Part shown: positions 12,484 to 46,609 of the stretch, piece after piece
How the letters are laid out: each line of letters opens with the position of its first letter
How positions within the stretch are numbered: the first letter of the stretch is position 1
Notes under the pieces: generated by a model
What the model saw: only the letters and a program-made list of their open reading frames with translations
Told to the model about the DNA's origin: nothing
Databases searched by the model: none
NCBI GenBank assembly: GCA_020725805.1
Contig: DYEF01000065.1
Location: 40,349 to 104,348 of the forward strand
Source of the DNA: Bdellovibrio sp.
GTDB lineage: Bacteria; Myxococcota; SpSt-1050
Direction of reading: 5' to 3'
Length of the DNA stretch: 64,000 nucleotides
Program-made: the position numbers and the translations under genes

Positions 12484-12547
12484 ATAATCCTCCCGTAAAT
12501 CTGACATATTCTATCATTCTAATTAATTCAAAAAAAGAAAATTTTAC

Positions 12548-16566: not shown

Positions 16567-17202
16567 CTACTTGAACATATCCTTTGGCAACGGAGAGACC
16601 TCTGCATCATCCGGTATCTTAAAACTGAAAAAGGAGTCCTTCAGTCCCGTATCAAATTCCAGATTCCTGAAATGAAAGACATTCCTGTTACCGATTTTGT
16701 CAGTAATCTCTATCTTCTCAACGTTGTACGTCTTTTTCCTCAGATGAATGACAAGACGGGCAATCTGGGCAGATTCCTCCCGGGGGACAAGAAGTAATCT
16801 GAAAAATTCAGCCTCCTCGTCGGCCTTTTCGACATTGAATTCTCTCTCTATACTGCCTTCACCATAGAGAAAGAGAAGAACAAGTTTTATCTGCGAAGAC
16901 TTAAAATCATCATCCACATAAACTATGCCGTCATCCTTGAGATATACCCAGAGATTATTCCCCTTTATTACGAAATCCTTCTGCTTGGGAGTCTTGTAAT
17001 TCCATCTGAACATACCACTCTTTTTATAGTACAGAACACCGGTCGATTCCATCAGGAGGGTACCATTCGAACCATAATACGACTGAATGAATTCCGCCTT
17101 GAAATCCTTTATTTTATCATAACGGCTCTGAAGCAGACTTACGATATCGGGATTCTTATCGTACAGAAACAACACAGCAAAAGCCAGAAAGATTCTCATC
17201 AT
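16567..17202 (-). CDS. LolA-like outer-membrane lipoprotein carrier protein
   Basis: 211 aa with a signal peptide and a LolA-like pattern (RYDKIKDFKAEFIQSYY...GVLYYKKSGMFRWNY). It is adjacent to a Lol-type ABC transporter. Confidence 0.65.
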   Translation of the reverse strand: MMRIFLAFAVLFLYDKNPDIVSLLQSRYDKIKDFKAEFIQSYYGSNGTLLMESTGVLYYKKSGMFRWNYKTPKQKDFVIKGNNLWVYLKDDGIVYVDDDFKSSQIKLVLLFLYGEGSIEREFNVEKADEEAEFFRLLLVPREESAQIARLVIHLRKKTYNVEKIEITDKIGNRNVFHFRNLEFDTGLKDSFFSFKIPDDAEVSPLPKDMFK

Positions 17203-17915
17203 TTTTTCTCTCCTGCCTTCTCGAATTTATATGATACCCCGTCTTTCAGGATTATCCTGAAATAGCTATAATCCAATACTTTCAGATTGCTCTCCTTTTC
17301 CTTCATATAAGTGACCGAGTCAGGTTTACCGAATATTATTATTACCTCATTCTCGCCAAGACCTGTTGCAAAACTCTTGTTGAAAACGGCCTCACGCGCC
17401 TCAGCACTCAGACCCTTAAGATAACTGTCGGCACTATTCTGTGAAAAAATCTCATAGAAGAGGTTGTAGAATTCATCGGGATTATCCACATCCGGTCTTA
17501 TAACCGCAATACAATTTTTATAACCCGATAGTTTATCAACCTTAAGATAAACCCATGGATAGAACCTTGGCGTCAGAAGAGGCCTGTTTGCAGGGGGAAA
17601 TTCTACCCTTTCAATCATTACTTCCGTATTAAAAGGTATAATACCCTTTTCGGTGCCGGGCAGAATGGGTTTTCCGTCAATACCTTCCAGATACACCGTT
17701 TCACTGAATCTTCGGGTCGAGAGCAGGCAGGTCTCCGAATTGCCGTAAAAATCACCGTAATAGAAGGAATATTTTACAAAAAAACGTTTTTCCCTGAGGC
17801 TTTCATTTATATTCTTCTGATTCTCCTCGCTCATTCTGATATTTTTCTGGCAGGTTGCACCATAAAACATAAAGACCAGAAGCATTGTTGCAGATAAATA
17901 ATATTTCATAAACAA
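17199..17915 (-). CDS. secreted hypothetical protein (possible BamE/SmpA-OmlA-like C-terminus)
   Basis: 238 aa with a signal peptide. It overlaps both the lolA-like gene and the permease gene by 4 nt. The C-terminal IIIFGKPDSVTY...YSYFRIILKDG weakly resembles BamE. Confidence 0.45.
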   Translation of the reverse strand: MFMKYYLSATMLLVFMFYGATCQKNIRMSEENQKNINESLREKRFFVKYSFYYGDFYGNSETCLLSTRRFSETVYLEGIDGKPILPGTEKGIIPFNTEVMIERVEFPPANRPLLTPRFYPWVYLKVDKLSGYKNCIAVIRPDVDNPDEFYNLFYEIFSQNSADSYLKGLSAEAREAVFNKSFATGLGENEVIIIFGKPDSVTYMKEKESNLKVLDYSYFRIILKDGVSYKFEKAGEKK

Positions 17916-17921
17916 CTCCCT

Positions 17922-19196
17922 CTACATCGTTATCGCCTTTGCCGGGTCTATCCTTGATGCCCTTATCGACGGGAGAAGAGCACCGATTGCACAGAAGAGA
18001 ACAGAAAAGGCTATTGCCACAAGAAAGATATAAAGATTCGGCTCAAAAAATGTATCCGGTTTATAGGGAAAATCCGGAATTCTGCTCTTTGCAAAGTAAT
18101 CCGTCAGCCTGATAAAGAGATACCCTGCAAATACCCCCGTAAGGCCGTTTATCAGTCCCGCAACGGATGCCTCGAAGAATATCATATATCTTATGTTCCC
18201 CTTTGTAGCCCCTACAGCCCTCAATATACCTATCTCACGCCTCCTTTCATATACAAGGAGAGCAAATGTATTGGAGATATTGATTGCCGAAAGTGCCACA
18301 ATAAGAATCGAGAGCATCCCGAGGAAGAGTGTTGCTATGCTTATAACACCTCCGATTGTCTTCCTCGTCTTGTCTATCTCGAGACCCATTGCAGTTATCT
18401 CCGAAGTAATTTCAGGCACCATCTGTGAACCCGAGGCAAGTACATACAGTTTCTTGTACTTGTTTATCTCGCCTGTCCCGTCGATATCCTTTTTGAATTT
18501 TCTTACATATTCAATGGGTATCGTAATCCCGAGCAGAATTGCCTTGTCCGAGAATCCTACCAGCTGGCACTCATACTCCTTTACCTTTGATGAATCCTTT
18601 GTACCGGCAAGATAACTCTTACCTACCACAAGTTTGAATCTGAAGCCTATAATGGCATCCGGAGTAAGACGCGGAAGTTTCATTGCCTGAGCGATATTGG
18701 AATTATAGAGTTCGAGCAGATGTTTTGAGACTATAACCGGTATGGGGCCATCCTCATTGTACTCGAACCTGAAATCCTTTCTGATATCATCTTTAACGAT
18801 TTCGGTGTCTATACCGGTGGCGGCAAGGTCGGTCACTATTCTTCTCGAATAGAACTCCCCTCTTGCCTGAATTGGAATATCAAGAACAACCTCCTTATAC
18901 ACGCCCTTTACGCCATTGATCGAGGAGATTGCCTCTGCCGTTGAATCCTCTATATTGGAAGACGATATGCCACCGAACGAAAAGATACCTATAGTTGAAC
19001 TCTTGGGTGTAACCTCGATTATGTTTACAGGCAGCTGGGCCAGTATCTTGCCGAATACAACCGACTTGATTCCGTTTCCAAGTGAGACAAAGAAGACAAA
19101 AGATGTAATTCCGAAGATTATTCCGACAGATGAGAGAAGAACTGCCTTCCTGTTTCTTATGAGATTTTTTACTGCAAGAGCCGAAATTCCATTCAT
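17922..19196 (-). CDS. FtsX-like ABC transporter permease (LolC/E / MacB-type)
   Basis: 424 aa with an N-terminal TM helix, a large periplasmic domain and three C-terminal TM helices, the FtsX/MacB topology. It starts 2 nt after the ATPase gene. Confidence 0.75.
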   Translation of the reverse strand: MNGISALAVKNLIRNRKAVLLSSVGIIFGITSFVFFVSLGNGIKSVVFGKILAQLPVNIIEVTPKSSTIGIFSFGGISSSNIEDSTAEAISSINGVKGVYKEVVLDIPIQARGEFYSRRIVTDLAATGIDTEIVKDDIRKDFRFEYNEDGPIPVIVSKHLLELYNSNIAQAMKLPRLTPDAIIGFRFKLVVGKSYLAGTKDSSKVKEYECQLVGFSDKAILLGITIPIEYVRKFKKDIDGTGEINKYKKLYVLASGSQMVPEITSEITAMGLEIDKTRKTIGGVISIATLFLGMLSILIVALSAINISNTFALLVYERRREIGILRAVGATKGNIRYMIFFEASVAGLINGLTGVFAGYLFIRLTDYFAKSRIPDFPYKPDTFFEPNLYIFLVAIAFSVLFCAIGALLPSIRASRIDPAKAITM

Positions 19197-19197
19197 A

Positions 19198-19878
19198 TCA
19201 TACCCTCACGAGCCTTCGTTCCCTTATGGCATAAATTTCATCTGCAATTTTCGTAATTCTCTCCTCGTGTGTCACCATCAGAAATGTTACATTCATCTCC
19301 TTTTTTATGGACATAAAAAGTTCAAGTATCGCTCCTGCAGTAATATCGTCCAGATCGCCTGTAGGCTCGTCGCAGAGGAGGACATCAGGTTTCATAAGAA
19401 GCGCACGGGCTATCGCCACACGTTGTTTCTCCCCGCCTGAGAGAGTAGGAGGATACTGATTCATCCTGTGTGTGAGCTGAACCCGTTCGAAGAGATAATC
19501 CACCCTCTTCTCAATATCCTTAATCTCCTCATGGTAAAAATATGACGGCAGGGATACATTCTCACGACAGTTAAGGTGGTCGAGCAGATTAAAATGCTGA
19601 AAAATAAAACCTATCTTCTCATTTCTGAATCTGCTGAGTTCCTTATCGGAGAGATTCTTGAGTCTTACACCTCCCACGACAGCCTCGCCTTCATACGAAC
19701 TGTCGAGTCCACCGATTATATTGAGCAATGTCGATTTACCTGAACCTGACGGACCGATTATTGCTACGATACTGCCTCTTTCAATACTGAGACTTACTCC
19801 TTCAATAATTGACTTTCTTACACCGTCAAAGAGAAAGGATTTTCCGACATCTTTAAGTTCTATCAGAGGCATAATCAC
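19198..19878 (-). CDS. ABC transporter ATP-binding protein (LolD/MacB-type)
   Basis: Walker A GPSGSGKST, signature LSGGEKQRVAIARAL, Walker B LLCDEPTGDLD. 226 aa. Confidence 0.85.
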   Translation of the reverse strand: MIMPLIELKDVGKSFLFDGVRKSIIEGVSLSIERGSIVAIIGPSGSGKSTLLNIIGGLDSSYEGEAVVGGVRLKNLSDKELSRFRNEKIGFIFQHFNLLDHLNCRENVSLPSYFYHEEIKDIEKRVDYLFERVQLTHRMNQYPPTLSGGEKQRVAIARALLMKPDVLLCDEPTGDLDDITAGAILELFMSIKKEMNVTFLMVTHEERITKIADEIYAIRERRLVRV

Positions 19879-21575
19879 TTATTCTTGACGTTGATTCCTA
19901 TATCGAGAGAGAGACCGTCGCTCTCCGGAATAACATAAATAAACATATTATCGAGTCTACCCAGAAGTTCCCTTACAAGCATAAAAGAGAATTTATATAT
20001 TCCGGTCGAAGCAACAGAATCCAGACTCTTTTCATCGATACCATCAAGAATCTTCTTTAAGGGAGAAAATGAGACATACAGAATCTGGGAAGACGGGTTA
20101 TTTACAACAGAAAAGATATCCTGCGGAATCTTATACGAAGGCTTTTTGTTCTTATCTGCGGGCTTCCGGATGATATTCTCCGGTTTGTCTCCGGTATAAA
20201 ATGCGTAGAAATTACCTTCATCTGTATACCAGTATGAATTATATGCTGCACCAAAACGGGACGATGTAAGACTGATATCCATCACTTTAAGTCCCTCTAC
20301 CTGCTGTCCCTTCTCTTTCATACTGCCCGAAAACCTCTGGAGCAGTTCCTCCGAAGTCTTTGTATCTGTAAGACTCATAGAATAAAAGACATTGAAAAGC
20401 TTATTGAATGCCTCGCCCTTGAAACCACTTTCAATAGCCCTGTTTATATCAGCCTGACCTCCGGCGGCTACCGCATAAACGAGTGTCCCCTTTATCAGAG
20501 GGAGAATATCCTTTTCGACGTCTACCTCCATATACTTCAGCATAGGACCAAACATCTTTTTGTTTATAATCATCATCTGATACGGGTCTTCTTCCTTCAT
20601 AAGGCTGTACAGGGCTGAGAGATTAAGACTTACCTTTGCAAGCAAAAGCGGGTCTTCAGGTACAATATAGAGCAGTCTTTCAATCTCGTCTCCGGACGAC
20701 TTTACAAAATATCTGTTAACATTCTCCATCGATTTACTCGATAACCCTGTAAAGCTGTACAGACTGATTCCTTTGGCTGATATATCGAATGAAAGAAGCA
20801 TTCCGTTGAAATTCTCCTTTACCGACGCAATCATCTGCTTCATCTCGCGGTTGAGCATAAAGCCCGGAGTCTCGATATTCCTGCCGCTGTTAATGAAGAA
20901 ATAGGCCTGCCCGCTTTTTACCCTCTTTTTCAGACCTGAAAAGAGAGTACTCTTTGAGAGTGAATTTAATTCCTTTGTATCAACAATCTTTCTTATTGCA
21001 GCCTCAGCCTTATCGGGGATTCCGTAAATCACAAATCCCTTATAGAAGGCGTACATCAGAACCGGCTTCTCTCCTTTGGGTCCCTGTCTTATTGCCGTTA
21101 TTATTCTTGCATCCATATATGATTTGGTTTTGAATATCTCTGTCTTCTCCTTCTCCCTCGACAGGCGGTTTAATGTATTCTCTGCCTTTGAACGGTCGGA
21201 ATATGGCATAATGAGCAGATTTACATTCTGCTGTCTGCCCTCCACACTGACTGCTACGGAAATGACGGCAACCGAACCGTCAGGGTCAAAACCCGCCTCT
21301 GTTATACTCTTTTTGTCGAGAAGATTTATGCCGAGTTTCTGCGATGCCAGATCAATCTCCTTCTTCAATGCCTCGAAGGCAATCCCGTTTTCAAAAAGCC
21401 TGAAAAATTGCATAATACCACCCATCATCGAACTGACGGACGGAATCAGAAGTACATTCTGGGTATCCTGAGGTATTACGGCAGTTATCTCGGTCTTCTT
21501 CTTCTCGCAGCCGGAACAGGAGAATAAAAAAACCATTACGAAAATCAAAATCAGTCCCGAATATCTTTTATTCAT
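19875..21575 (-). CDS. lipoprotein, function unknown
   Basis: The internal Met gives MNKRYSGLILIFVMVFLFSCSGC (lipobox); the track ORF starts 12 codons upstream. It overlaps the ATPase gene by 4 nt. Confidence 0.55.
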   Translation of the reverse strand: MNKRYSGLILIFVMVFLFSCSGCEKKKTEITAVIPQDTQNVLLIPSVSSMMGGIMQFFRLFENGIAFEALKKEIDLASQKLGINLLDKKSITEAGFDPDGSVAVISVAVSVEGRQQNVNLLIMPYSDRSKAENTLNRLSREKEKTEIFKTKSYMDARIITAIRQGPKGEKPVLMYAFYKGFVIYGIPDKAEAAIRKIVDTKELNSLSKSTLFSGLKKRVKSGQAYFFINSGRNIETPGFMLNREMKQMIASVKENFNGMLLSFDISAKGISLYSFTGLSSKSMENVNRYFVKSSGDEIERLLYIVPEDPLLLAKVSLNLSALYSLMKEEDPYQMMIINKKMFGPMLKYMEVDVEKDILPLIKGTLVYAVAAGGQADINRAIESGFKGEAFNKLFNVFYSMSLTDTKTSEELLQRFSGSMKEKGQQVEGLKVMDISLTSSRFGAAYNSYWYTDEGNFYAFYTGDKPENIIRKPADKNKKPSYKIPQDIFSVVNNPSSQILYVSFSPLKKILDGIDEKSLDSVASTGIYKFSFMLVRELLGRLDNMFIYVIPESDGLSLDIGINVKNK

Positions 21576-21683
21576 AAACAGCACTCCGGTATAAAAACCT
21601 GATATTGCCATTTATACCAAAATTTTCCATTAATAAAGGAATTTCTGAATAATAATCGTCAAAGTTTATATAACAGAAAAATC

Positions 21684-22667
21684 TTATCCGGCACTGATTT
21701 TTCCTGATGCAATCTTCATTGCCTGCATTATCCTGATATTGTTTTCATAGTAAAAGCCGCCTTTACGATATGCCCAGTAACAGATATAATCAAACCCTCC
21801 GACCTTTTTCCTCCTGATATTTCCGATATCTATCAGATATTTGGTCTTTCTCAAATCTTCTTTGATTATGTTGCCAATCCTGTATCTTTCATCCTCGATG
21901 AATCTCCAGCAGGGATAAATATCACCATTTATGTCAACCGAAAATATTCTCTTACCCAGTTCACAGAACGGTTCTTTGTGAAAACTGACTTTTCCTTTTT
22001 TAATTCCTGATTCTATTATTCTGTCGAACAACGGGACAGAAAGAAGACCACCCGATTTTGTAATTTCAATATATCTGATCAAAGCTTCTGTAAGATAATC
22101 TGCAATGATTCCAGGACGAATCTTTGTCAATCCGGTATCCGAATAATCAAAGGCAATGCTCAGCTTCGAAAAACCATTTTTATAAAAAAAGGTAATCATA
22201 TCCGGAAGGAGAGAGAGATTCGACGAATTTACGGTAGTACGGATATCTGTTCTCTCCCTGCAATCAAATAAACGGTTCGAGTAATTCTTTTCCGAAATAT
22301 TAATATCCGCCGAAAGGATTATTCTGAAATCATTCTTTAACAGAAAATCACAGACCTCTCTGTCCAGAAGTTTCCCGTTGGTGTTAACGGAAAGACTGAA
22401 GCTGTATTTTCTGGTCTTTAAATAACTGACGGCATATTGCATCAGGTCAAAATCCAGAAGCGGCTCCTTGCCGAAAAATCCGAGTTCAGGTATTCTTTTC
22501 TGTCTCCTGCTAATTACAGCTATCCGGTCAATTATGTCTCTGAGGACATCTCTATTTATACGGCTACCGTCGTTAAGGTTTTTAAGATAACAGTAACCAC
22601 AATTCAGATTACATCTGTGATTTATAAATAATGCCCAGATGATTTTATCTTTTTTTCTCTTTTTCAA
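21684..22667 (-). CDS. radical SAM protein with a C-terminal Cys-containing (twitch/SPASM-like) region
   Basis: N-terminal CNLNCGYC (CxxxCxxC) and a C-terminal FCELG...INGDIYPCW resembling a partial auxiliary-cluster domain. 327 aa. It overlaps the upstream FAD oxidoreductase gene by 23 nt. Confidence 0.7.
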   Translation of the reverse strand: MKKRKKDKIIWALFINHRCNLNCGYCYLKNLNDGSRINRDVLRDIIDRIAVISRRQKRIPELGFFGKEPLLDFDLMQYAVSYLKTRKYSFSLSVNTNGKLLDREVCDFLLKNDFRIILSADINISEKNYSNRLFDCRERTDIRTTVNSSNLSLLPDMITFFYKNGFSKLSIAFDYSDTGLTKIRPGIIADYLTEALIRYIEITKSGGLLSVPLFDRIIESGIKKGKVSFHKEPFCELGKRIFSVDINGDIYPCWRFIEDERYRIGNIIKEDLRKTKYLIDIGNIRRKKVGGFDYICYWAYRKGGFYYENNIRIMQAMKIASGKISAG

Positions 22668-23970
22668 CTCTTTTTCTTCTCAGGATATCCGCTGCGGTAT
22701 CCCTGCCATAAATAATCGCATCCTGCATAGCAGAATATTCCCACCTTCCATACCTGCCTATACTGTAAACTTTATTCTTTGCCAGATATTCGAATATCAG
22801 AGATGTCGACTTTCTGTAATTTCTGTCGAATATGACATAGGCACAGTTTATAAAAAACGGCTTGATATTTATTATATCTGCATCCTCCCGTATGAAACCA
22901 AGTCTTTTCAGAAGATGCGGAATTCTCCTCTCCAGATTCCCCGAGTCACATCCCGTACCGCTTCTGTATGAATATTCGAGATAGAAGGTGTTACAGTCAT
23001 CCTTTGTCAGTGACCTGTCGAATGCGGAATATGACCCGATACGGTAAAACGGTATATCCTTCTCGGGGAGATAAACCCAGTGCGGGATATTATCCGAGAC
23101 CCTTCTGGTGATTATGTTGAAATAGCAGACTTCGGTATTGACCAGTTTTTTACCTGCATCAAGGACATTACCGGGTGCATCTTCTATAAGGCTTACAAAT
23201 CTGTTCAGCGGGATTGTGGAGACGAGATATTTATATCTGTAAACAGTATTGTTGGAAAGATATACGAGCTGCTTTTTGATATTTATTCTGACAGGTTCTG
23301 TCTTATAAATGACTTCCGATGGTATCTTTCTCAAGAAACCCCTGATAATCGATTCTATTCCCTCCCTCTGCGGGTAATAAAAGGACGAGTTATATCCCAC
23401 ATCCGTTTTCGGAATACCGAGAGCCCCGTCGATAACATCCTCAATGTTCGGGACCGGGATATATTTTTCACAAAACCCCGCCGACATCTCTTCCGGGGCA
23501 ACCGTCCAGATCTTCGAATTGTACGGAATCAGGAACTCATCCGCAATACCCTCACCGAATTCGCCATAGATAAAATCCCTGAAACTTTTATATTTCTTCC
23601 ATTTTTTATTCATCCTTGCACGGATAAAATCCCTGAGGCAGCGGGCGACTATCTCTCTGGGCAATCCGTAAAGATTTATCTGAAAAGGATATTCGGTAAA
23701 TGTACTATGTGAGAATATCTTTGAATTTCTTCTGATTTTCAGAAGAGGCACATTAAGTTCATTTTCGATTACTTTTCTAAGTTCATCTGTCCTCAGATGC
23801 ATCAGATGACCGGTCTTGTCGAAATACGAATTATCATAGTAATCTGTCTTCATAAGTCCGCCGGCACGTTCATCCTTCTCAACGATAACAACCCCAGGGG
23901 AGCACAGAAAATAGGCCGTTGAAAGTCCCGACGGTCCCGCTCCGAGAATAATTATATCTGTTTCAAGCAT
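22645..23970 (-). CDS. FAD/NAD(P)-binding oxidoreductase (amine-oxidase / UDP-galactopyranose-mutase-like fold)
   Basis: N-terminal dinucleotide-binding motif IIILGAGPSGLSTAY..VEKDERAGG and a C-terminal GRYGRWEY..MQDAI typical of this fold. 441 aa. Confidence 0.65.
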   Translation of the reverse strand: MLETDIIILGAGPSGLSTAYFLCSPGVVIVEKDERAGGLMKTDYYDNSYFDKTGHLMHLRTDELRKVIENELNVPLLKIRRNSKIFSHSTFTEYPFQINLYGLPREIVARCLRDFIRARMNKKWKKYKSFRDFIYGEFGEGIADEFLIPYNSKIWTVAPEEMSAGFCEKYIPVPNIEDVIDGALGIPKTDVGYNSSFYYPQREGIESIIRGFLRKIPSEVIYKTEPVRINIKKQLVYLSNNTVYRYKYLVSTIPLNRFVSLIEDAPGNVLDAGKKLVNTEVCYFNIITRRVSDNIPHWVYLPEKDIPFYRIGSYSAFDRSLTKDDCNTFYLEYSYRSGTGCDSGNLERRIPHLLKRLGFIREDADIINIKPFFINCAYVIFDRNYRKSTSLIFEYLAKNKVYSIGRYGRWEYSAMQDAIIYGRDTAADILRRKRVEKEKKR

Positions 23971-23973
23971 TTT

Positions 23974-25278
23974 CTATCTCTCGTTAAGCATTTTGTTGGT
24001 TCTGGCAAGACGTCTTGACAATTCTGATGCAAACATCCTGAAAATCTTGCCTGCAAACTGCATATCGGAATCAAGCATATCCATAAACTTATTACGGTTG
24101 ATTATATATACCTTTACCTGTGAATGGGCGATACAGCTGGCAGAGGGCGGTTCATTCAGAATCATACTCATTTCACCGATGTAGTCTCCGTCTTTGAGAG
24201 ATGCAACCGTATTCTCTCCTACCACGACATCCACAATCCCTTCCCTTATAACAAAGAGACCTTCGGGTATAACGCCGCTCTTTATAAGGATTTCTCCGGG
24301 CTTAAATACCTTTTCTGTGCACATCGAATAGACCATCTTGAGTTCATTCATATTCAGCATATCAAAGATCGGAATTTTACGGATCTTGTCTGCATCCATC
24401 ATAACAGACGTATAACTCCCCTCCTCCTCGACAAACTGCGAGAGTTCCGGAAGTTTTATTCCGCCCTCAATAAATGCAAGCCTGTCCTGTACGTCCCTGT
24501 AATCAGGAGAAATGCTCTGGATAATCTTGAAAAGTTTGATTGCATGGTCCTTATAATTGAGTTCTGTCGCAAGGACTCCGGCTCTGTAAAACATCTCGAG
24601 GCTTCTGGGACTGATTCCACCCATTTTGCAGCCCTCTATCAGAAATTTTAAGGCCATAGCGGAATTACCCTTCTGGACGAGCAGATTTGCAAGTTTTATT
24701 CTTGCATCGGGAAACTTCTCATCATTTGGCGGCACCTTCCTCAGCATCTCGATAGCATCTGCGCTCATATTGCTGCCAATCGCCTGCTCAGCTGCATCAG
24801 TAAATTTGCCCGTTGCCTTCTCACAGGCTATAACCTTCTCTGTATTTCCTGTCTTCCGGTATAGTTCGATAGCCCTGTCATACTGTTTTGCCCTCTCGTA
24901 ATTCTGTGCGGCATTATCGAGCATATTGAGTTTTTCGTACATCTGTGCCGCCTTGTCAAATTCATAATTTTTTTCATAAAGTCTGGCAACCTCTTCGAAA
25001 TTCTGAGTCAGTGTAAAACACTTGATTGCCATATTATAATCCCGGGCCTGCTTGAACATCTCCCCGACAGTGCGAAGCGTTACCTTGCTCGAACTCTTGA
25101 ACTCATTGAAGACCAGCTCACCTATATCCTCCTTACAGGACTGATATGCACTCACCGCCTCTTCGACATTGCCGGAAATTATATAGTTTTTAATGTAATT
25201 GATAATCTTCGAGGTGGGGACAAAAGAACCCTGAGATTCATCAAACTCAAATTCGATCTCCCTGAACATCTGAGACAT
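23974..25278 (-). CDS. TPR-repeat protein with a C-terminal cyclic-nucleotide-binding (CAP-effector) domain
   Basis: Repeated A/Y/L-rich ~34-aa TPR-like units (YERAKQYDRAIELYRK...). The C-terminal cNMP-binding signature is FKPGEILIKSGVIPEGLFVIREG...GEMSMI. Confidence 0.7.
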   Translation of the reverse strand: MSQMFREIEFEFDESQGSFVPTSKIINYIKNYIISGNVEEAVSAYQSCKEDIGELVFNEFKSSSKVTLRTVGEMFKQARDYNMAIKCFTLTQNFEEVARLYEKNYEFDKAAQMYEKLNMLDNAAQNYERAKQYDRAIELYRKTGNTEKVIACEKATGKFTDAAEQAIGSNMSADAIEMLRKVPPNDEKFPDARIKLANLLVQKGNSAMALKFLIEGCKMGGISPRSLEMFYRAGVLATELNYKDHAIKLFKIIQSISPDYRDVQDRLAFIEGGIKLPELSQFVEEEGSYTSVMMDADKIRKIPIFDMLNMNELKMVYSMCTEKVFKPGEILIKSGVIPEGLFVIREGIVDVVVGENTVASLKDGDYIGEMSMILNEPPSASCIAHSQVKVYIINRNKFMDMLDSDMQFAGKIFRMFASELSRRLARTNKMLNER

Positions 25279-25293
25279 ATTACCTCCGATTTT

Positions 25294-26064
25294 TTACTTG
25301 GGCCTGCCAAAAGGTGCAATATAAGCATAGCCGTCCTGATAACTGATCTTTACCGCTCCCGGCTCATATAAGTTCATAAAACTCGGGCCGTATTCAATCA
25401 CATTCGGGATTATCTGATTGATAATAAGTATAAATCTCTGACCGTTTTTCAGCCTTATAAGATGAAGTTCCTTATACTGATTGCTTCCTTTAATCTCAGC
25501 TACATCCGAAAGGAATTTCTCCTTGTCAAACCATCCTGCATCCTGATTTTTAAGCAGTATCTCAGAATCCCTAAGTATATTCATAACGGCACTGTAATTA
25601 TCGATCTCCTCAGGAAATCTGAATTCTATCCCTCTCTTCTTCAGGTCAGATGATATCTCAGATTTCTGTTCCTTTGACAGCATAAAAAACTGAGCCGAAT
25701 CTATAATTCTGTAAACAAATCTGCGGCTATTCTCCTGTATATAATCCTGAGGGTCAATAGTGTAGACCGCTTCTATGCAGCTGTTTTCCACAAAAGGTAT
25801 ATATCTGACTTCCATCTTCTCTGGAAATATCAGATACCTGTTGCTGCCATCTTCCCTGAGCTTACCTATACCGTAAGAAGTTCTGCACAGACTTGCCTCC
25901 GTAACGGAGACAATTTTGCTCTGCGCTTTTGGTTCATCGTCTTTCCTGTTTATATCCCTTTCAGGAATGATTCTGTCCGGTTTGACAGTGGCAGGCACAG
26001 AGTCTGCGCTTTTTCTTATAAAAAATGACTTAATCTTTTCTAAAATTTTCATAATATCCGGCAC
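25294..26064 (-). CDS. hypothetical protein
   Basis: 256-aa ORF with no motif I recognise. It sits 15 nt upstream of the TPR/cNMP gene on the same strand. Confidence 0.45.
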   Translation of the reverse strand: MPDIMKILEKIKSFFIRKSADSVPATVKPDRIIPERDINRKDDEPKAQSKIVSVTEASLCRTSYGIGKLREDGSNRYLIFPEKMEVRYIPFVENSCIEAVYTIDPQDYIQENSRRFVYRIIDSAQFFMLSKEQKSEISSDLKKRGIEFRFPEEIDNYSAVMNILRDSEILLKNQDAGWFDKEKFLSDVAEIKGSNQYKELHLIRLKNGQRFILIINQIIPNVIEYGPSFMNLYEPGAVKISYQDGYAYIAPFGRPK

Positions 26065-26183
26065 ATCAAAGTATTGCTGATATTATACCAAAAGAAGATT
26101 TTTTCAAGCACGATTTTATTAAATCATGGATATTTCAGATATTACAATACCGGGGTCAATACAAACGCAGTTCAAATTATTGT

Positions 26184-26218
26184 TTGACATATCCTAATTA
26201 TGGATTTATCAATATACC
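26184..26218 (+). promoter_or_regulatory. candidate sigma70-type promoter for the inositol-phosphate synthase gene
   Basis: TTGACA, then a 17-nt spacer, then TATCAA, about 25 nt upstream of the ATG at 26244, which has an AAAGGAGAG RBS. Confidence 0.25.
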
Positions 26219-26243
26219 GCTTTAAGCTGAAAGGAGAGCTGAG

Positions 26244-27587
26244 ATGAATAAAAAAGAAAAGAACAGGATAGAGATTGCGAAACCCGAAGGGAAGCTCGGA
26301 GTACTGATTCCCGGACTCGGTGCAGTTGCAACCACATTCGTGGCAGGTGTCTATCTCGTCAGAAAAGGACTCGGCAAGCCCATTGGTTCACTCACCCAGA
26401 TGGGGACAATAAGGCTTGGCAGAAGAGACAAAAAGCAGTTTCCGCTGATAAAGGATGTCGTCCCGCTCGCAGATCTTGACGACATAGTATTCGGAGGGTG
26501 GGATATATTTGAAGAGAATGCGTATGAGGTCGCAAAGAAGGCCGGCGTTCTCTCCTATCAGGATATAGAACCGGTAGAGAAAGAGCTCAAGGAACTAAAG
26601 CCGATGAAGGCGGTCTTCGACCGTAATTATGTCAAGAAGCTCGACGGACCCAACAAGAAGAGTGCAAAGACCAAATATGACCTCGCACTCATGCTGATAA
26701 AGGACATAGAGGATTTCAAAAAAAAGAATAAGCTTTCAAGAGCCGTTACAATATGGTGTGCATCGACGGAGGTATACAGGAAACCATCGAAGGTACACTC
26801 AAGTCTTAAAAATTTCGAAGAAGGACTTAAAAAGAATTCCGAGGAGATTGCACCATCCCAGATTTACGCATATGCATCACTTATGGCCGGTGTCCCTTTC
26901 ATAAACGGCTCACCGAATATGGCCTGTGATATCAATGCAATCACAGAACTCGCAATACAAAAGCATCTTCCCATAGCAGGAAAGGATTTCAAGACAGGGC
27001 AGACACTTATGAAGACCATTCTTGCGCCGGGACTCAAAGCCAGACTTCTGGGACTCGACGGCTGGTTCTCTACCAATATCCTTGGGAACAGGGACGGCGA
27101 GGTTCTGGATGACCCCGGGTCGTTTAAGAGCAAGGAGGTCTCGAAATTATCAGTTCTGGATACAATCCTCCAGCCCGACCTCTATCCGGAACTATACGGC
27201 GATTTTACACACAAAGTAAGAATCGAATATTACCCTCCCAGAGGGGACAATAAAGAAGGCTGGGACAACATAGATATATTCGGATGGCTCGGCTATCCAA
27301 TGCAGATAAAGGTAAACTTTTTGTGCAGGGATTCGATACTCGCTGCTCCGGTTGTTCTCGACCTCGTGCTCTTCACCGACCTTGCACAGAGAGCAAATAT
27401 GGCAGGGATTCAGGAGTGGTTGTCGTTCTACTTCAAGTCCCCACAGGTAAAAGAGGGCTTATATCCGGAACATGACCTCTTCATTCAGCAGATGAAACTC
27501 AAAAACACCCTCAGATATATGATAGGAGAGGACCTTATAACCCATCTGGGCTGGGATTATTACAAGGCGGAATACGAGAGAGACTGA
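26244..27587 (+). CDS. myo-inositol-1-phosphate synthase (inositol-3-phosphate synthase), archaeal/bacterial type
   Basis: Collinear with the Archaeoglobus-type MIPS as I recall it: GLGAVATT (NAD site) and YAYASLMAGVPFINGSPN...AGKDFKTGQTLMKTILAP...LGLDGWFSTNILGNRDG...FKSPQ. Confidence 0.85.
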   Translation: MNKKEKNRIEIAKPEGKLGVLIPGLGAVATTFVAGVYLVRKGLGKPIGSLTQMGTIRLGRRDKKQFPLIKDVVPLADLDDIVFGGWDIFEENAYEVAKKAGVLSYQDIEPVEKELKELKPMKAVFDRNYVKKLDGPNKKSAKTKYDLALMLIKDIEDFKKKNKLSRAVTIWCASTEVYRKPSKVHSSLKNFEEGLKKNSEEIAPSQIYAYASLMAGVPFINGSPNMACDINAITELAIQKHLPIAGKDFKTGQTLMKTILAPGLKARLLGLDGWFSTNILGNRDGEVLDDPGSFKSKEVSKLSVLDTILQPDLYPELYGDFTHKVRIEYYPPRGDNKEGWDNIDIFGWLGYPMQIKVNFLCRDSILAAPVVLDLVLFTDLAQRANMAGIQEWLSFYFKSPQVKEGLYPEHDLFIQQMKLKNTLRYMIGEDLITHLGWDYYKAEYERD

Positions 27588-27663
27588 ATCCTTAGGCTAT
27601 AAAATCAGGTGTTTTATGCAAATTTCTTGATTTTGCCCTCAATATCTGTTAGATATAAAACCT

Positions 27664-28059
27664 ATGGGAGATACGAAGACACCATCAACCACGACCAACA
27701 GGAGAAGGTACCCGAGAGTACCCCTCTCACTTCTGGTTCAGTACAAATTCAATTCACTTGAGGAATTCATATCCGAGTATGCCCTCAACATCTCACTGGG
27801 CGGTATGTTTATCAAGACTACCGAACCAAGGGAGAAAGGTATACTCGTCTATTTCCAGTTTACGCTCGCCGACGGGAGCAAGCTGATCGAAGGGCTCGGT
27901 CGGGTAGTCTGGGTCAATCAGGTGGACATAAACAATGCCGACAAGGTTCCCGGAATGGGTATTGAATTCATCAATATGGATGACGAGTCAATGCAGCTCA
28001 TCGAAGAAATCGTAAACAATAATCTCAAAAGAGGAAATGTCATTCCGGAAACACCCTGA
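27664..28059 (+). CDS. stand-alone PilZ domain protein (putative c-di-GMP receptor)
   Basis: RRYPR (RxxxR) followed by NISLGGMF (D/N-x-S-x-x-G), the two PilZ c-di-GMP-binding motifs. 131 aa. Confidence 0.7.
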   Translation: MGDTKTPSTTTNRRRYPRVPLSLLVQYKFNSLEEFISEYALNISLGGMFIKTTEPREKGILVYFQFTLADGSKLIEGLGRVVWVNQVDINNADKVPGMGIEFINMDDESMQLIEEIVNNNLKRGNVIPETP

Positions 28060-28062
28060 TAG

Positions 28063-28779
28063 ATGTACAATTACAGAGAGAATCTTCAGATAATAGGAGG
28101 CAGATTCACCGGGGGTGTAAAATACCTCATTATCATCACTGCGGCTATCTATGTTGTCCAGTTAATTTCTAAATATTTTGACCTCTCGAGCCTGATTATT
28201 CTCATATTTGGTCTGACGCCTGCTCTTCTCATTCAGAATCTGTATATTCATCAGATTTTTACGTATTTGTTCCTCCACTCACCCGCCGACCCGACGCATC
28301 TTCTCTTTAATATGCTCGGACTCTGGATGTTCGGCTCACCGCTCGAAGAGAGATGGGGGACAAGGATATTTCTCAGGTTCTATTTTATATGCGGAATCGT
28401 CGGAGGTTTATTCGTCCTTCTGAGCGGGCTTATCTTTTCTTCGGCCTATAATATCCCGACAATCGGACAATCAGGTGCCGTCTTCGGACTGATAGGTGCA
28501 TTCTGTATTATTTACTCCGAGAGCAGGATTCTCTTCTATTTTATAATCCCAATCAAGGCAAAACAGATGCTCTGGATAATAATATTCATTTCGGTACTCT
28601 ATGCCCTCGCAGGTTCTCCCTACTCTTTTCCGGCCCACATTGGCGGTCTTCTTTGCGGAATATTAATAATAAAAAAACTTTACATACCGTCTGTTATGAT
28701 ATCTACTCTCAAGGAGTTCATCAAAGGCCTGAGACGTAAAAGGCTCAGAGTGATAGAGAAAGACAGGTTTGTTAATTGA
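28063..28779 (+). CDS. rhomboid family intramembrane serine protease
   Basis: Multi-TM protein with the catalytic GQSGAVFGLIGA (GxSG) and the downstream AHIGGLLCG His-containing helix. It starts 3 nt after the PilZ gene stop. Confidence 0.8.
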   Translation: MYNYRENLQIIGGRFTGGVKYLIIITAAIYVVQLISKYFDLSSLIILIFGLTPALLIQNLYIHQIFTYLFLHSPADPTHLLFNMLGLWMFGSPLEERWGTRIFLRFYFICGIVGGLFVLLSGLIFSSAYNIPTIGQSGAVFGLIGAFCIIYSESRILFYFIIPIKAKQMLWIIIFISVLYALAGSPYSFPAHIGGLLCGILIIKKLYIPSVMISTLKEFIKGLRRKRLRVIEKDRFVN

Positions 28780-29276
28780 TAAGATTCAAGCAGTTCGACA
28801 TAGTTGCAATAGTATTAATAAGCTGTACACCTCTTTTACTTCTGGAGACATTCGGAGTAACAAAGGGTATGTATAAAATCTGGCCAATCTTCCCCTTTGT
28901 CTTCGGACTTGGCTCCGTACTGGTTGCATTAAGACCGGAAAACCGTTTCCCGCTTATGACAGGGATAGGCTCTTTTCTGATACTGTGCTCCCTCTTCTTC
29001 TTCTATCTCAATCTGACCTCGTGGTCTGAACTTGCCACTCTCTGGCCGGTCTTCGTAATTCTTCTGGGATTATCACTGATCATCAGTTCATATATAAACA
29101 AATCCAACATTGTCAGGGTTTCAGGCATAGGGACATCACTTCTCGGGATATCATTCACATTTATCTTTACAATCTCCTACTCTTTCTGGCCTCTGTCTAT
29201 TGCCCTTGCCGGAATACTCATCCTGATAATAAACCATTACCCCATAAAGAGGGGTAGAAAGGAAGAGAACCAATGA
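28776..29276 (+). CDS. small polytopic membrane protein, function unknown
   Basis: 166 aa with four or five hydrophobic helices. The TTG start overlaps the rhomboid stop (an alternative ATG is at 28869), and its own stop overlaps the next start (ATGA). Confidence 0.5.
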   Translation: MIRFKQFDIVAIVLISCTPLLLLETFGVTKGMYKIWPIFPFVFGLGSVLVALRPENRFPLMTGIGSFLILCSLFFFYLNLTSWSELATLWPVFVILLGLSLIISSYINKSNIVRVSGIGTSLLGISFTFIFTISYSFWPLSIALAGILILIINHYPIKRGRKEENQ

Positions 29277-30625
29277 AAAAAATAATTTTTGTAGAGCCAA
29301 GAGGGGCTGAATCGAATGTATTTGCGAAATATATGATGCTTCCCCTTCTGGGACCTATCTATCTCGCAACAATCCTCAGACAGAAAGGCTATGATACCGA
29401 AGTGCTAAATGAAAATATCCTTGGAAGGGATATTACCGCAGAAGACCTAGGCTGTGATGTTCTGTGTATATCCATAATAACAAACACAGCCCCGCGCGGA
29501 TATGAAATTGCTGAGATCTTCAGAAATACTCATCCGGAGAAGACAATTGTAATAGGCGGAATACACGCCACTTTTCTGCCGGAGGAGAGTCTCAGATATG
29601 CCGACTTCGTAACGACCTTTGAGGGAGAGGAGACTATTCTGTCAATTATCGAGGGAAGAGCCGAAAAGGGGATAGTATCCGGACACAGGATCGAAAATAT
29701 GGATTCCATCCCTTACCCCGATTTTTCGCTAGTAAAAGGTTTTGACAGGAAATTTATTCAGCCTGTAATGTTCTCGAGAGGTTGCCCTTTTAACTGTTCA
29801 TTCTGCACTGTGGCAAGGATGTTCGGGAGGAAATACAGGACACACTCAGATGAATATGTCCTCGGATTACTAAGTAATACAAGACATAATGACATCTTTA
29901 TCTACGACGACAATTTCGCCGCAGATATCAGAAGAACAGAACGGATTCTCGACGGAATCATAGGTCTTAAGAGAAAATTCGAATTCAGTGCACAGGTCAG
30001 AACCGATATCACAAAGAATCAGAATATCATCAAAAAGATGTCAGAGGCGGGATTCTACAGGGTATATATAGGTATCGAATCCATAAACGAAAAGTCCCTA
30101 AAGAGTATTGAGAAGAGACAGAGCGTCGATGATATCGTCAGGGCTGTAGATGTATTTCACAAATATGGTATCAAGGTTCACGGTATGTTTATTTTCGGAA
30201 CAGATGAAGATACACCTGAGATATTCAATTCTACTGTACAATTCTGCAAAAGGGAAGGGATTGATACCGTCCAGTATCTGGCCCTGACACCTTTCCCCGG
30301 GACACCGGTATTCGAGGGACTCAGAGCCAGCAGAAGGCTCCTTCACGAAGAATGGCAGTATTATGACGGACAGCACGTGGTATTCAGGCCCAAAAATATG
30401 AAACCGGAGGAACTTCAGGAAGGAATCATTAATTCATACAAGGCATTCTATTCATATCTTACGCTTGCAGATGATATATTAAAGACAGGGCTCGATTTTC
30501 TGTTCAATCTGCCAAACAGCCTTCTCCCTCAGTTCGACAGGATAAAACACAGACTGATGGGCAGATATATTGTAAACCGGTGGCTTGAATTCAACAGGGA
30601 TTATATAGCAAAAATCAGGTCCTGA
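29273..30625 (+). CDS. B12-binding-domain radical SAM protein (class B)
   Basis: N-terminal cobalamin-binding Rossmann-like region (DVLCISIITNTAP...VIGGIHATF) followed by the radical SAM CPFNCSFC and a TIM-barrel region. 450 aa, with an AGGAAGAG RBS. Confidence 0.8.
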   Translation: MKKIIFVEPRGAESNVFAKYMMLPLLGPIYLATILRQKGYDTEVLNENILGRDITAEDLGCDVLCISIITNTAPRGYEIAEIFRNTHPEKTIVIGGIHATFLPEESLRYADFVTTFEGEETILSIIEGRAEKGIVSGHRIENMDSIPYPDFSLVKGFDRKFIQPVMFSRGCPFNCSFCTVARMFGRKYRTHSDEYVLGLLSNTRHNDIFIYDDNFAADIRRTERILDGIIGLKRKFEFSAQVRTDITKNQNIIKKMSEAGFYRVYIGIESINEKSLKSIEKRQSVDDIVRAVDVFHKYGIKVHGMFIFGTDEDTPEIFNSTVQFCKREGIDTVQYLALTPFPGTPVFEGLRASRRLLHEEWQYYDGQHVVFRPKNMKPEELQEGIINSYKAFYSYLTLADDILKTGLDFLFNLPNSLLPQFDRIKHRLMGRYIVNRWLEFNRDYIAKIRS

Positions 30626-30630: not shown

Positions 30631-31191
30631 TTATTTAAGACCCATCTTTTTAAGAATGGACATTGCACTCGTTGTAGGTGATACGTCTTCGGGGAGATAA
30701 ATCATTACTCCGCCCTTGGCGGGTCTGACAGTGACTTTCCCCTCTTCTGTAAGCTGCTTGGTAACTTTTATCGGGTCCTCGCCGAAATACTCCTTGAAGG
30801 CCTGATTGAAGCCGGAATAGACGGAATGAATACCTTTGTATTTGGGAGGTCTGAGCTTTTCTATTGCAAGTCTGGTAAATTCCTCGTAACTCATCTTTTT
30901 GCTGTCATTCCTATCTATTCCCATCTTTTCGAATATCTGGGAGGTATTTACGGAAGGAGATACGTCCTCGGGAAGGTAAATCATTACTCCGCCCTTGGCA
31001 GGCCTGATAGCGATTTTACCCTCATCCGCAAGCTGTTTTGTGACCTTTATCGGGTCCTCACCGAAGTATTCCTTGAAAGCCTGATTGAAACCGGAAAATA
31101 CAGAGTGAATCCCTTTATACTTGGGCGACCTGAGAGTTTCAATGGACTTCTTAACAAATTCTTCATAGCTAAGTTTCTTTTCTTCTGACAT
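30631..31191 (-). CDS. protein made of two tandem ~93-aa repeats, function unknown
   Basis: The start is set at the internal ATG 31191 (RBS GGAGGA); the track ORF extends 40 codons upstream. The halves SYEEFVKKSIETLRSPKYKGIHSVFSGFNQAFKEYFGEDPIKVTKQL..GKIAIRPAKGGVMIYLPEDVSP and SYEEFTRLAIEKLRPPKYKGIHSVYSGFNQAFKEYFGEDPIKVTKQL..GKVTVRPAKGGVMIYLPEDVSP are nearly identical. Confidence 0.55.
   Translation of the reverse strand: MSEEKKLSYEEFVKKSIETLRSPKYKGIHSVFSGFNQAFKEYFGEDPIKVTKQLADEGKIAIRPAKGGVMIYLPEDVSPSVNTSQIFEKMGIDRNDSKKMSYEEFTRLAIEKLRPPKYKGIHSVYSGFNQAFKEYFGEDPIKVTKQLTEEGKVTVRPAKGGVMIYLPEDVSPTTSAMSILKKMGLK
30640..31191. repeat. intragenic tandem duplication, period 279 nt, ~80-85% nucleotide identity
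   Basis: The stretch beginning ggtgatacgtcttcggggagataaatcattactccgcccttggc near 30678 recurs as ggagatacgtcctcgggaaggtaaatcattactccgcccttggc near 30957. Confidence 0.8.
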
Positions 31192-31379
31192 CAGTAATCC
31201 TCCAGAAAAATTTACAATAATAATATCACAATAAAGTACAATGTCAAATATATAGTCCTTTTCTGTCAAGGCCACCCTGAAATTTATAAATAAATTCCTG
31301 AGCAAATCCACATTTTGGGCAAATTTTATAAACCGCTTCCTGTCTTATTGATATCTGTCTCAACATAAAGCCAAAAGAT

Positions 31380-46172: not shown

Positions 46173-46177
46173 AATAA

Positions 46178-46609
46178 TCAGTTGCTCCCTGAACCTTTTA
46201 ATATCTTTTCGGTAATCTGATTACTTATAGAATCTATATGCTTTGCCGCATCGGCCATAATACTGTCCTTATCCTTCCTGAGATTTTCCCGTCCCTTTTC
46301 AATTATCTCGGCTACTTCCTGTCTTGCCGTCTGAAGAATCTTATCTCTTTCTGTATTTGCCTCTTCCTTAATCTTTTCATATTCCTGTCTGGCATCCTCC
46401 CTTGCAATCCTGACGGATTCATCGAATTTTTTGGAGAGCTCCTCTACCTTCTGTTTCAGTTCCTCCGCCTCTTTTCTGTACCCCACAAGTATCTCATCCC
46501 TCTTTCTGAGATTTTTGAGATACGGGTCAAAGAAAATGAATTTGAGTGAAATTGCCAGAACAATGAAGAGTGCAAGCTGGATAAAAAAGGTATAATCTAA
46601 ATCTATCAT
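46178..46609 (-). CDS. Fo ATP synthase b-prime (second b-type) subunit
   Basis: 143 aa with a single N-terminal TM helix and a charged helix (KKFDESVRIAREDARQEYEKIKEE) paralogous to the adjacent b subunit. Confidence 0.7.
   Translation of the reverse strand: MIDLDYTFFIQLALFIVLAISLKFIFFDPYLKNLRKRDEILVGYRKEAEELKQKVEELSKKFDESVRIAREDARQEYEKIKEEANTERDKILQTARQEVAEIIEKGRENLRKDKDSIMADAAKHIDSISNQITEKILKGSGSN

Follow-up and report, generated by a model that had tools for sequence, protein, structure and literature searches.

The stretch of DNA that we analysed (64,000 nt; hereafter the window) carries four tightly packed genes on the minus strand at 21684-26064. Along the operon these are: a gene for an orphan protein of 252 aa (25294..26052, minus strand; the ORF itself covers 25294-26064 and has 256 aa), a gene for a TPR protein with a C-terminal cyclic-nucleotide-binding (CNB, CAP-family) domain (23974..25278, minus strand; 434 aa), a gene for an FAD enzyme that is kin to eukaryote-type UDP-galactopyranose mutase (UGM) (22645..23970, minus strand; 441 aa), and a gene for an orphan radical SAM (rSAM) enzyme with no RRE and a degenerate, twitch-like SPASM C-terminus (21684..22667, minus strand; 327 aa). 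In the ORF listing, the successive genes are separated by a 15-nt gap and a 3-nt gap, and the FAD enzyme gene then overlaps the rSAM gene by 23 nt. This listing agrees with the span and the tight spacing given in an earlier note on this DNA, and the domains named there (an rSAM enzyme with an extra C-terminal part, an FAD enzyme of the amine-oxidase/UGM fold, and a TPR protein with a CNB domain) are confirmed by Pfam and NCBIfam. At 252 aa, the product on record for the first gene (P0132) is four residues shorter than the ORF at its N-terminus, consistent with an ATG start at 26052.

The identical gene set, order and tight spacing are found in every related contig that is long enough (L001, L002, L004, L005 and L006); L003 ends inside the TPR/CNB gene and so shows three of the four genes. 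Because the arrangement recurs in all these contigs, it is real and inherited rather than a chance pattern of ORFs. The GC content is uniform throughout the region (0.40-0.43), and nothing therefore suggests that an island was acquired here recently. The operon is restricted to one clade (a small group of uncultured bacteria), is chromosomally inherited, and its four genes encode cytoplasmic proteins.

Both edges of the operon are marked by promoter-like elements. Upstream, a consensus scan and reading of the sequence gave a match, TTGAAA ... TGGTATAAT (26080..26107, minus strand), and this motif also precedes the first operon gene in the same five contigs, including L002, which keeps it despite having a different upstream neighbour; we infer from the sequence that the element acts as a promoter. 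At the other edge, the intergenic spacer between the operon and the genes below it (21612..21683, minus strand) contains the promoter-like motif CTTTATTA-N13-GGTATAA, which is kept in all seven orthologous spacers. The −10-like box of this motif directly touches the ATG at 21611 with which the next ORF, encoding a DUF3352 protein, opens, so this gene probably starts at 21575 instead: a start there (M13) gives a lipoprotein signal peptide ending in ...LFSC and a protein of the same length as its relatives (564-567 aa).

How far the four genes belong together functionally is a separate question. The conservation of their products within the clade is very unequal: 76-86% identity for the TPR/CNB protein, 65-75% for the FAD enzyme, 62-69% for the orphan protein and 41-51% for the rSAM enzyme. 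In this neighbourhood, the TPR/CNB protein is surpassed in conservation only by Ino1 (89-90%) and PilZ (94-98%), whose genes are transcribed divergently. Such unequal conservation would suit genes that are co-transcribed by descent and share no pathway, with the flavoenzyme serving general glycan synthesis, the rSAM enzyme being a fast-evolving accessory whose substrate is unrelated, and a separate cellular module formed by the TPR/CNB protein and the orphan protein. This reading also draws on the synteny within the clade, which extends over the whole 11-gene neighbourhood (the linkage is thus not specific to the four genes), and on the broad flavoenzyme family (see below), which never occurs with the rSAM type of this clade. 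Against it, the overlap between the FAD enzyme and rSAM genes is kept at 4-23 nt across the clade and the remaining gaps at 3-21 nt, although synonymous sites are saturated between clade members (for which reason dN ratios are usable here and dN/dS is not); moreover, a rearrangement breakpoint in L002 lies exactly at the upstream edge of the operon and not inside it. We consider the absence of a common pathway improbable.

The genes past the spacer (16567..21575, minus strand) lie outside the operon and were assigned with Pfam and NCBIfam: they encode the DUF3352 lipoprotein, a LolD-like ATPase, a LolC/E-like permease, a 238-aa lipoprotein and LolA. The LolA protein scores 122.4 bits against the equivalog TIGR00547 (cut-off 112), whereas the ATPase has 225.6 bits (under the cut-off of 307.75) and the permease has FtsX and MacB_PCD domains, with LolC/E scores far under cut-off. 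Given these scores, the identity of LolA is firm and that of the ABC components is probable. The earlier note had linked the operon to this ABC transporter as its exporter. We find no support for that link: the ABC genes go with an equivalog-level LolA and lie past a gap of ∼108 nt that holds the conserved promoter-like motif. Since LolA passes its cut-off and the block has a promoter-like motif of its own, we read the ABC block as housekeeping lipoprotein sorting and not as a dedicated peptide exporter; nothing functional beyond adjacency ties it to the operon.

In the 434-aa protein, TPR matches are found at residues 72-213 and a cNMP_binding domain (PF00027) at residues 323-405, with 63.7 bits against a cut-off of 27.5. 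The fold and profile are those of a CNB domain, with matches to PKG and PKA-R at E-values from 1e-30 to 1e-14. In CNB domains, the phosphate-binding cassette GE...R(S/T)A contains an arginine that touches the cyclic phosphate. Here the cassette reads GEMSMILNEPPSAS (the PKG equivalent is GERALLYDEPRSAT, ...EPRSAT), that is, it departs from this pattern: the arginine is replaced by proline in all six aligned sequences (the window and five orthologues). With this replacement, control by a second messenger, as suggested earlier from the domain, is not supported, and the ligand of the protein is probably neither cAMP nor cGMP. The 256-aa ORF product has no family match in Pfam or NCBIfam. Its 252-aa form opens with about 50 variable, disordered residues, and a conserved beta-rich domain comes after them; it contains no invariant cysteine (two partly conserved Cys positions vary), and a sulfatase-type motif is missing from it.

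The CNB domain, together with the rSAM enzyme, also brings to mind anti-phage defence, in the form of a viperin-like rSAM enzyme with a Pycsar-like CNB effector. PADLOC returns weak partial matches of this kind, between the N-terminus of the rSAM enzyme and pVip (42.8 bits) and between the CNB domain and Pycsar TIR effectors (40-47 bits), but the matched parts are just the rSAM core and the CNB domain, both of them generic. Cyclase, TIR and transmembrane effector domains are absent, the locus lies among housekeeping genes in stable synteny and its GC content is uniform, and few products of the block are as conserved as the protein with the CNB domain, the opposite of what is typical for defence genes. 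A role in defence, already unlikely on these grounds, is barely credible.

The 327-aa protein belongs to the radical SAM superfamily by its Pfam score (PF04055, 45 bits, cut-off 29.5), its fold matches and its motifs: all full-length members share the cluster motif CxxxCxxC (C19-N-L-N-C23-G-Y-C26), and the GGE-like SAM-binding motif, FGKEP (66-69), is invariant. It also has a partial SPASM match (23.9 bits, cut-off 21.5, profile positions 1-40 of 67). The SPASM motif has the form CX9-15GX4C - gap - CX2CX5CX3C - gap - C, with seven cysteines for two auxiliary clusters. The only C-terminal cysteines conserved in the rSAM alignment are those of C235-X12-G-X4-C253 and C296; the CX2CX5CX3C half is missing, leaving the protein short of the seven-Cys set, while the full motif is present in its nearest outgroup proteins. 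By sequence count, three conserved C-terminal cysteines would fit one auxiliary cluster with three Cys ligands, for which SkfB and CteB are precedents (PMC8326336). The protein starts only 18 residues ahead of CxxxCxxC, so it has no RRE domain; its best database matches align from their own residue ∼90-100 on, past their RRE, and no PqqD-like ORF was found in the locus by domain search and ORF listing. We thus describe the enzyme, on its sequence, as an isolated offshoot of the SPASM clade that has lost CX2CX5CX3C and has no RRE.

Its isolation is borne out by the searches. A profile scan of contigs with the rSAM alignment recovered only three members of the clade plus an archaeal enzyme, which is unrelated and has a full SPASM domain, and an exhaustive HMMER search gave no intermediate relatives. 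The nearest outgroup enzyme (P0149) has an Rrf2 regulator upstream, and its context is uninformative because the contig has only 1.9 kb. Assignment by HMM places the enzyme among the kin of SPASM peptide maturases, but it reaches no curated maturase or housekeeping family. In NCBIfam the scores in bits, each given against its cut-off, are: PapB 120/340 (the best), Nif11 107/519, CbpB 84/375, SCIFF 82/425 and QhpD 58/453; PqqE is not among the best 25 families listed. An identity as anaerobic sulfatase maturase (anSME) was considered and rejected: TIGR03942 gives 60 bits (cut-off 349) and PRK13758 38 bits (cut-off 441), and only three C-terminal cysteines are conserved. No sulfatase gene occurs in the neighbourhood of the rSAM gene.

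That kinship, and the ABC transporter downstream, are what speak for a RiPP or peptide-derived cofactor locus, exported by the ABC transporter and controlled by a cyclic nucleotide. The earlier note, which had proposed peptide or cofactor maturation, had itself seen no precursor ORF, and in this it was right: we listed all ORFs of at least 20 aa in 21550-26300 and compared the intergenic regions on both sides of the operon among 6-7 orthologous loci. Neither flanking gap has a small ORF that is conserved; the promoter-like motifs alone are. Maturation of a peptide or cofactor is thereby set aside, as the rSAM enzyme lacks an RRE, no conserved small ORF accompanies it and no curated maturase cut-off is reached; the locus does not look like one for a RiPP or cofactor. 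As an explanation of the whole operon, this is already largely refuted and very unlikely: in seven loci, neither the operon nor its surroundings contain a small ORF that is conserved, a protease and other RiPP tailoring genes are absent, the transporter block has an equivalog-level LolA and its own conserved promoter-like element, and the CNB domain is without the phosphate-binding arginine.

The enzyme could instead be a leader-independent protein maturase (compare anSME and QhpD) that modifies a residue of a protein, folded or unfolded, be it the 252-aa protein or one encoded elsewhere, with the TPR/CNB-like protein as chaperone or scaffold and the flavoenzyme either separate or working on the same product. 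The 252-aa protein, however, has no invariant cysteine or sulfatase-type motif, the rSAM enzyme evolves much faster than it does (an enzyme and its substrate usually co-vary), a UGM-like partner is unprecedented in protein maturation, and no candidate substrate emerged. We regard protein maturation as unlikely, while keeping it in view as an alternative.

The 441-aa flavoenzyme matches Amino_oxidase and NAD_binding_8 in Pfam, and in a PDB sequence search it matches the UGMs of Trypanosoma cruzi (4dsg; E 1.6e-33, residues 3-414) and Aspergillus fumigatus (E 3.5e-31). All curated NCBIfam cut-offs are missed by far (e.g. PRK07208.1-4, 150 bits vs a cut-off of 389). We compared its residues with the published list of UDP, FAD and galactose contacts of the A. 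fumigatus enzyme, AfUGM (PMC3624792). The FAD fold, the flavin His loop and most of the residues aligned with the UDP and FAD contacts are those of eukaryote-type UGMs: the protein carries the GxGxxG FAD motif and a G-H flavin loop, and it keeps the equivalents of the uracil contacts Y104, F106, Q107, F158, N163 and W167 and of the diphosphate contacts Y317, R327, Y419 and Y453 (the conserved residues are H55, Y94, F96, Q97, F146, N151, W155, Y300, R310, Y378, R406 and Y412). The diphosphate contact R182 is not preserved, and among the galactose contacts (R182, N207 and N457 of AfUGM) only N207 is kept, as N194. Y170 stands where AfUGM has R182, and M415 where it has N457; the 12 clade members share both replacements without exception, as do nearly all of 109 distant homologues. 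Relative to AfUGM, the bacterial family as a whole has Tyr/Phe for R182, Met for N457 and His for F66. As two of the three galactose contacts are replaced, the protein has 441 aa and the scores stay below the cut-offs, the substrate is probably a UDP-sugar other than UDP-galactose. On this homology, the flavoenzyme is a member of a widespread, uncharacterised bacterial family (hundreds of homologues) that is related to eukaryote-type UGM.

Genomic contexts of this family in other phyla are glycan or glycolipid assembly clusters, with a small GT2 glycosyltransferase usually as the immediate neighbour (a GT2 gene lies beside the family gene in 31 out of 54 loci elsewhere). The clade's rSAM type was not found among 80 metagenome loci of the family. 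Two rSAM genes adjoin a homologous flavoenzyme in one locus (L007); these were rejected as counterparts of the enzyme in the window, being HxsC4/MoaA-like and unrelated. The co-occurrence of FAD enzyme and rSAM enzyme thus holds inside one clade, and outside the clade it was not found. The earlier note had set two outcomes against its own reading, an rSAM enzyme of a housekeeping family and an ordinary UGM that is not linked to it; half of this came true, in that the FAD enzyme is UGM-like with GT2 as its usual partner, whereas the rSAM enzyme falls into no housekeeping family.

Our best explanation, which we put forward tentatively and at somewhat below an even chance as a whole, is an operon, specific to this clade, whose products modify a nucleotide sugar destined for the cell envelope. 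The flavoenzyme would bind a UDP-sugar other than UDP-galactose and isomerise it, most likely by a pyranose-to-furanose ring contraction on the reduced flavin. The rSAM enzyme, translationally coupled to it, would fill the position that is held by the GT2 gene in other lineages; its 5'-deoxyadenosyl radical would take a hydrogen from the sugar nucleotide or from a downstream glycoconjugate, and the single auxiliary Fe-S cluster (three Cys ligands, possibly an open coordination site) would accept electrons or anchor the substrate. The product would go into an envelope glycoconjugate. A gene for a WecA/MraY-type transferase lies 7.5 kb downstream and is homologous to neighbours of the flavoenzyme family elsewhere. 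Neither the TPR/CNB-like protein nor the 252-aa orphan would be catalytic; they would be partners of the enzymes, as scaffold or regulator. A bolder version, which we offer as speculative and doubtful, is that the degenerate-SPASM enzyme acts by radical chemistry on the UDP-(furano)sugar itself, as supplied by the mutase-like flavoenzyme, and has taken the genomic place that a GT2 gene occupies in all other lineages; this would be a new sugar-nucleotide tailoring step, e.g. furanose epimerisation, dehydrogenation or C-C rearrangement, for an envelope glycoconjugate.

A literature search returned nothing relevant on a pairing of rSAM enzymes with UGM or on bacterial eukaryote-type UGMs. If the pairing is functional, it would define a new rSAM subfamily, an RRE-less SPASM lineage cut down to one three-Cys auxiliary site, that is partnered with a flavin-dependent sugar-nucleotide isomerase, a combination without published description. 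The flavoenzyme family, with its conserved UDP site, remodelled sugar pocket and small GT2 as usual neighbour, suggests that bacterial glycolipids or glycans contain a furanose, or another isomerised sugar, that has gone unrecognised, and direct rSAM chemistry on a UDP-(furano)sugar, if true, would be the first functional handle on this family. In practical terms, three tempting annotations are corrected: "RiPP locus", "peptide exporter" and "cNMP-regulated".

Among known systems, the Lol system (LolCDE with LolA) resembles the downstream block in its equivalog-level LolA, LolD-like ATPase and MacB/FtsX-type permease, but the block in the window has only one permease gene and contains additional DUF3352 and 238-aa lipoproteins. 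The eukaryote-type UGMs of A. fumigatus and T. cruzi (PDB 3uka and 4dsg) are homologous to the flavoenzyme over their full length (E 1e-33 to 1e-31) and are longer, with ∼480-510 aa compared with 441 aa. The anSMEs have two fully Cys-ligated auxiliary clusters (PMC8326336), whereas the rSAM enzyme here keeps three cysteines only. Maturases of the CteB/PapB type, which act on ranthipeptides (SCIFF), differ in several respects: they have an N-terminal RRE and at least seven C-terminal cysteines, while the enzyme here has no RRE, three such cysteines and no CX2CX5CX3C; there is also no Cys-rich precursor at this locus, and the PapB score is far under 340 bits. There is also a likeness to BtrN, BlsE and SpeY, twitch-domain rSAM enzymes whose substrates are sugars or nucleosides. 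Like the enzyme described here they have no RRE, and their truncated SPASM domain with a single auxiliary cluster would have its counterpart in the predicted three-Cys site; they act on small-molecule carbohydrates, and the enzyme here is paired with one of sugar-nucleotide type.

The four packed minus-strand genes described in the earlier note are seen again in the ORF map, and the domain calls made there were reproduced by Pfam and NCBIfam. In order they are an orphan gene without family assignment (25294–26064; a 256-aa ORF, whose 252-aa database product, P0132, would fit a start at the ATG at 26052), a gene for a 434-aa protein with TPR and cNMP_binding domains (TPR/CNB; 23974–25278), a gene for a 441-aa flavoenzyme with Amino_oxidase and NAD_binding_8 domains (22645–23970) and a gene for a 327-aa radical SAM enzyme (rSAM; 21684–22667) with Radical_SAM and a partial SPASM match (23.9 bits against a cut-off of 21.5, covering profile positions 1–40 of 67). 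They are spaced by a 15-nt gap, a 3-nt gap and a 23-nt overlap, and GC content is flat throughout the region. Downstream of the rSAM gene lie genes for a DUF3352 lipoprotein, an ABC ATPase, an FtsX/MacB_PCD permease, a 238-aa lipoprotein and LolA.

A TTGAAA...TGGTATAAT element upstream of the first gene is kept in all orthologous loci, including L002, a related contig with a different upstream neighbor, and the spacer between the rSAM and lipoprotein genes carries a second motif, CTTTATTA-N13-GNTATAA, in seven out of seven loci. Neither flanking spacer has a small ORF that is shared among the orthologous loci compared. Given these promoter-like elements at both spacers and no conserved small ORF, the four genes are predicted to be a separate unit, the Lol block (the downstream LolA-containing genes) having its own promoter-like element. 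In the ORF listing the DUF3352 lipoprotein begins at 21611, and the promoter-like motif of the 21575–21683 stretch ends at that ATG. Its true start is probably M13 (21575), because in the window the -10-like box directly adjoins the ATG at 21611, and with M13 as first residue the protein has a lipoprotein signal peptide (...LFSC) and matches its relatives in length (564–567 aa).

Gene order is identical in every sufficiently long related contig: orphan, TPR/CNB, flavoenzyme, rSAM, DUF3352, LolD-like, LolC/E-like, lipoprotein, LolA, a RimO/MiaB-like rSAM and a WecA/MraY-type transferase; in L002, synteny ends immediately upstream of the orphan gene. Identities between the window and its relatives are 76–86% for TPR/CNB, 65–75% for the flavoenzyme, 62–69% for the orphan protein (restricted to 12 proteins of the clade), 72–80% for LolD and about 90% for Ino1. 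The rSAM has the lowest identity (41–51%) of the 15 syntenic genes compared (others 57–98%), and its dN is ∼2–2.6 times that of the flavoenzyme gene, synonymous sites being saturated. This fastest-evolving gene of the 15 is yet intact, with six conserved cysteines in every member. The linkage of the operon is old, but is restricted to a single clade, and there the entire neighborhood is syntenic, which limits the evidential value of gene co-occurrence. Simple co-inheritance of the four genes is a possible, though unlikely, alternative.

A divergent plus-strand set (26244–30625) encodes myo-inositol-1-phosphate synthase (Ino1), a PilZ protein, a rhomboid protease, a LiaF-TM-like membrane protein and a B12-binding rSAM; it is complete in contig L001 (Ino1 90%, PilZ 94%), seen as Ino1, PilZ and rhomboid in L006, where the contig then stops, and absent beside the operon in L002. 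A 226-aa protein (30631–31311, minus strand), with a weak LiaF-like_C match only, has an internal tandem duplication of ∼85 residues (twice ...SYEEF...KYKGIHSV.SGFNQAFKEYFGEDPIKVTKQL.EEGK...RPAKGGVMIYLPEDVSP...). The stretch 46001–50000 has low GC (0.34–0.37 versus about 0.43 elsewhere) and plus-strand genes amid minus-strand ones, which encode a hybrid PAS/HisKA/HATPase/REC sensor kinase (46787–49171) and a 650-aa lamin-tail-domain protein (49216–51168). The stretch was possibly inserted later. Two large minus-strand ORFs, 10213–12507 (764 aa) and 56323–58803 (826 aa), have no Pfam match with E ≤ 1e-5.

The CNB domain (23974–24310) matches its profile clearly, at 63.7 bits. In the phosphate-binding cassette it has ...EPPSAS in place of the ...EPRSAT of PKG. 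As this Arg-to-Pro change is kept in all six sequences aligned (the window and five orthologues), canonical cAMP or cGMP binding is doubtful. TPR/CNB contains neither a DNA-binding nor a catalytic domain, and despite the substitution it is among the most conserved proteins of the block.

Only 11 relatives of the rSAM were found among 5.8 billion clustered proteins, and every one comes from a MAG labelled Deltaproteobacteria or Myxococcota bacterium. When 1.84 billion representatives were searched exhaustively with a profile, three clusters scored 475–506 bits and the next hit only 167 bits, so the family is an isolated clade. Three of its conserved cysteines (C19, C23 and C26) serve the SAM cluster; the other three are C235, C253 and C296. 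The segment C235-X12-G-X4-C253 corresponds to the opening half of the SPASM motif, whose CX2CX5CX3C half is absent here and present in the nearest outgroup proteins. Auxiliary sites with three cysteines and a coordination position left open are known from SkfB and CteB (PMC8326336). The protein begins only 18 residues ahead of the cluster motif and thus has no RRE (leader-peptide recognition domain). It represents a subfamily not described before and of very narrow distribution, with a degenerate SPASM domain and no RRE.

A peptide-maturation (RiPP) locus with an exporter, as the earlier note had suggested, fails its defining tests: there is neither RRE nor precursor, the transporter is Lol, and the rSAM reaches no curated-family cut-off (PapB 120 versus 340, SCIFF 82 versus 425, anSME 60 versus 349 and QhpD 58 versus 453). 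A defence module was rejected as well, with only generic domain matches, at odds with the stable housekeeping context.

The flavoenzyme is homologous to eukaryote-type UDP-galactopyranose mutases (UGM; Trypanosoma cruzi 4dsg, E 1.6e-33; Aspergillus fumigatus, E 3.5e-31). Contacts of the A. fumigatus enzyme (AfUGM; PMC3624792, Table 3) were placed by hand on a sequence alignment, and residues were tallied over 12 homologues from the clade and 109 more distant ones. The His loop (H55), the equivalents of uracil contacts (Y94, Q97, N151, W155; also F96 and F146, in a 45-sequence alignment) and diphosphate contacts (Y300, R310, Y378, Y412), and the FAD pyrophosphate Arg (R406) are kept, whereas AfUGM R182 is replaced by Tyr/Phe, N457 by Met and F66 by His throughout the family. 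The flavoenzyme therefore belongs to a large and apparently uncharacterised bacterial family (>430 proteins at E 1e-10 or better, many phyla) that combines a UGM-like UDP and flavin site with an altered sugar pocket.

We collected 80 metagenome loci of this family, 54 with enough flank; none of the 80 has a window-type rSAM. In 31 of these 54 the flavoenzyme gene has a small GT2 gene no more than 300 nt away, and a polysaccharide deacetylase often comes next (e.g. the triads in L008, L009 and L017); 47 of the 54 have a glycan gene within 3 kb (GT2, polysaccharide deacetylase, GT4-family or WecA/MraY-type transferase, epimerase or LPG_synthase_TM protein). The slot directly downstream of the flavoenzyme gene is occupied by the rSAM in the window's clade and by GT2 elsewhere; neither GT2 nor deacetylase was found within the window. 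A WecA/MraY-type neighbor, present in 10 of the 54, is homologous to the window transferase at 13586–15154 (E 1e-37). In another metagenome contig (L007, 5950–9296), a 41%-identical flavoenzyme homologue divergently adjoins GcpE (IspG) and two HxsC4/MoaA-like rSAM genes, unrelated to the window rSAM.

We infer that flavoenzyme and rSAM would act as a sugar-nucleotide or envelope-glycan tailoring pair, a possible role that we favor tentatively because of the identity of the flavoenzyme, its family's overwhelmingly glycan-related context, translational coupling and the existence of sugar-acting twitch-type rSAM enzymes. The other serious reading, though a less likely one, is a leader-independent protein maturase, to which the nearest relatives of the rSAM point. 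Orphan rSAM families are common, and the flavoenzyme family with its GT2 partnership is arguably the more general lead. Literature searches found no precedent for pairing this rSAM with a UGM-like flavoenzyme.
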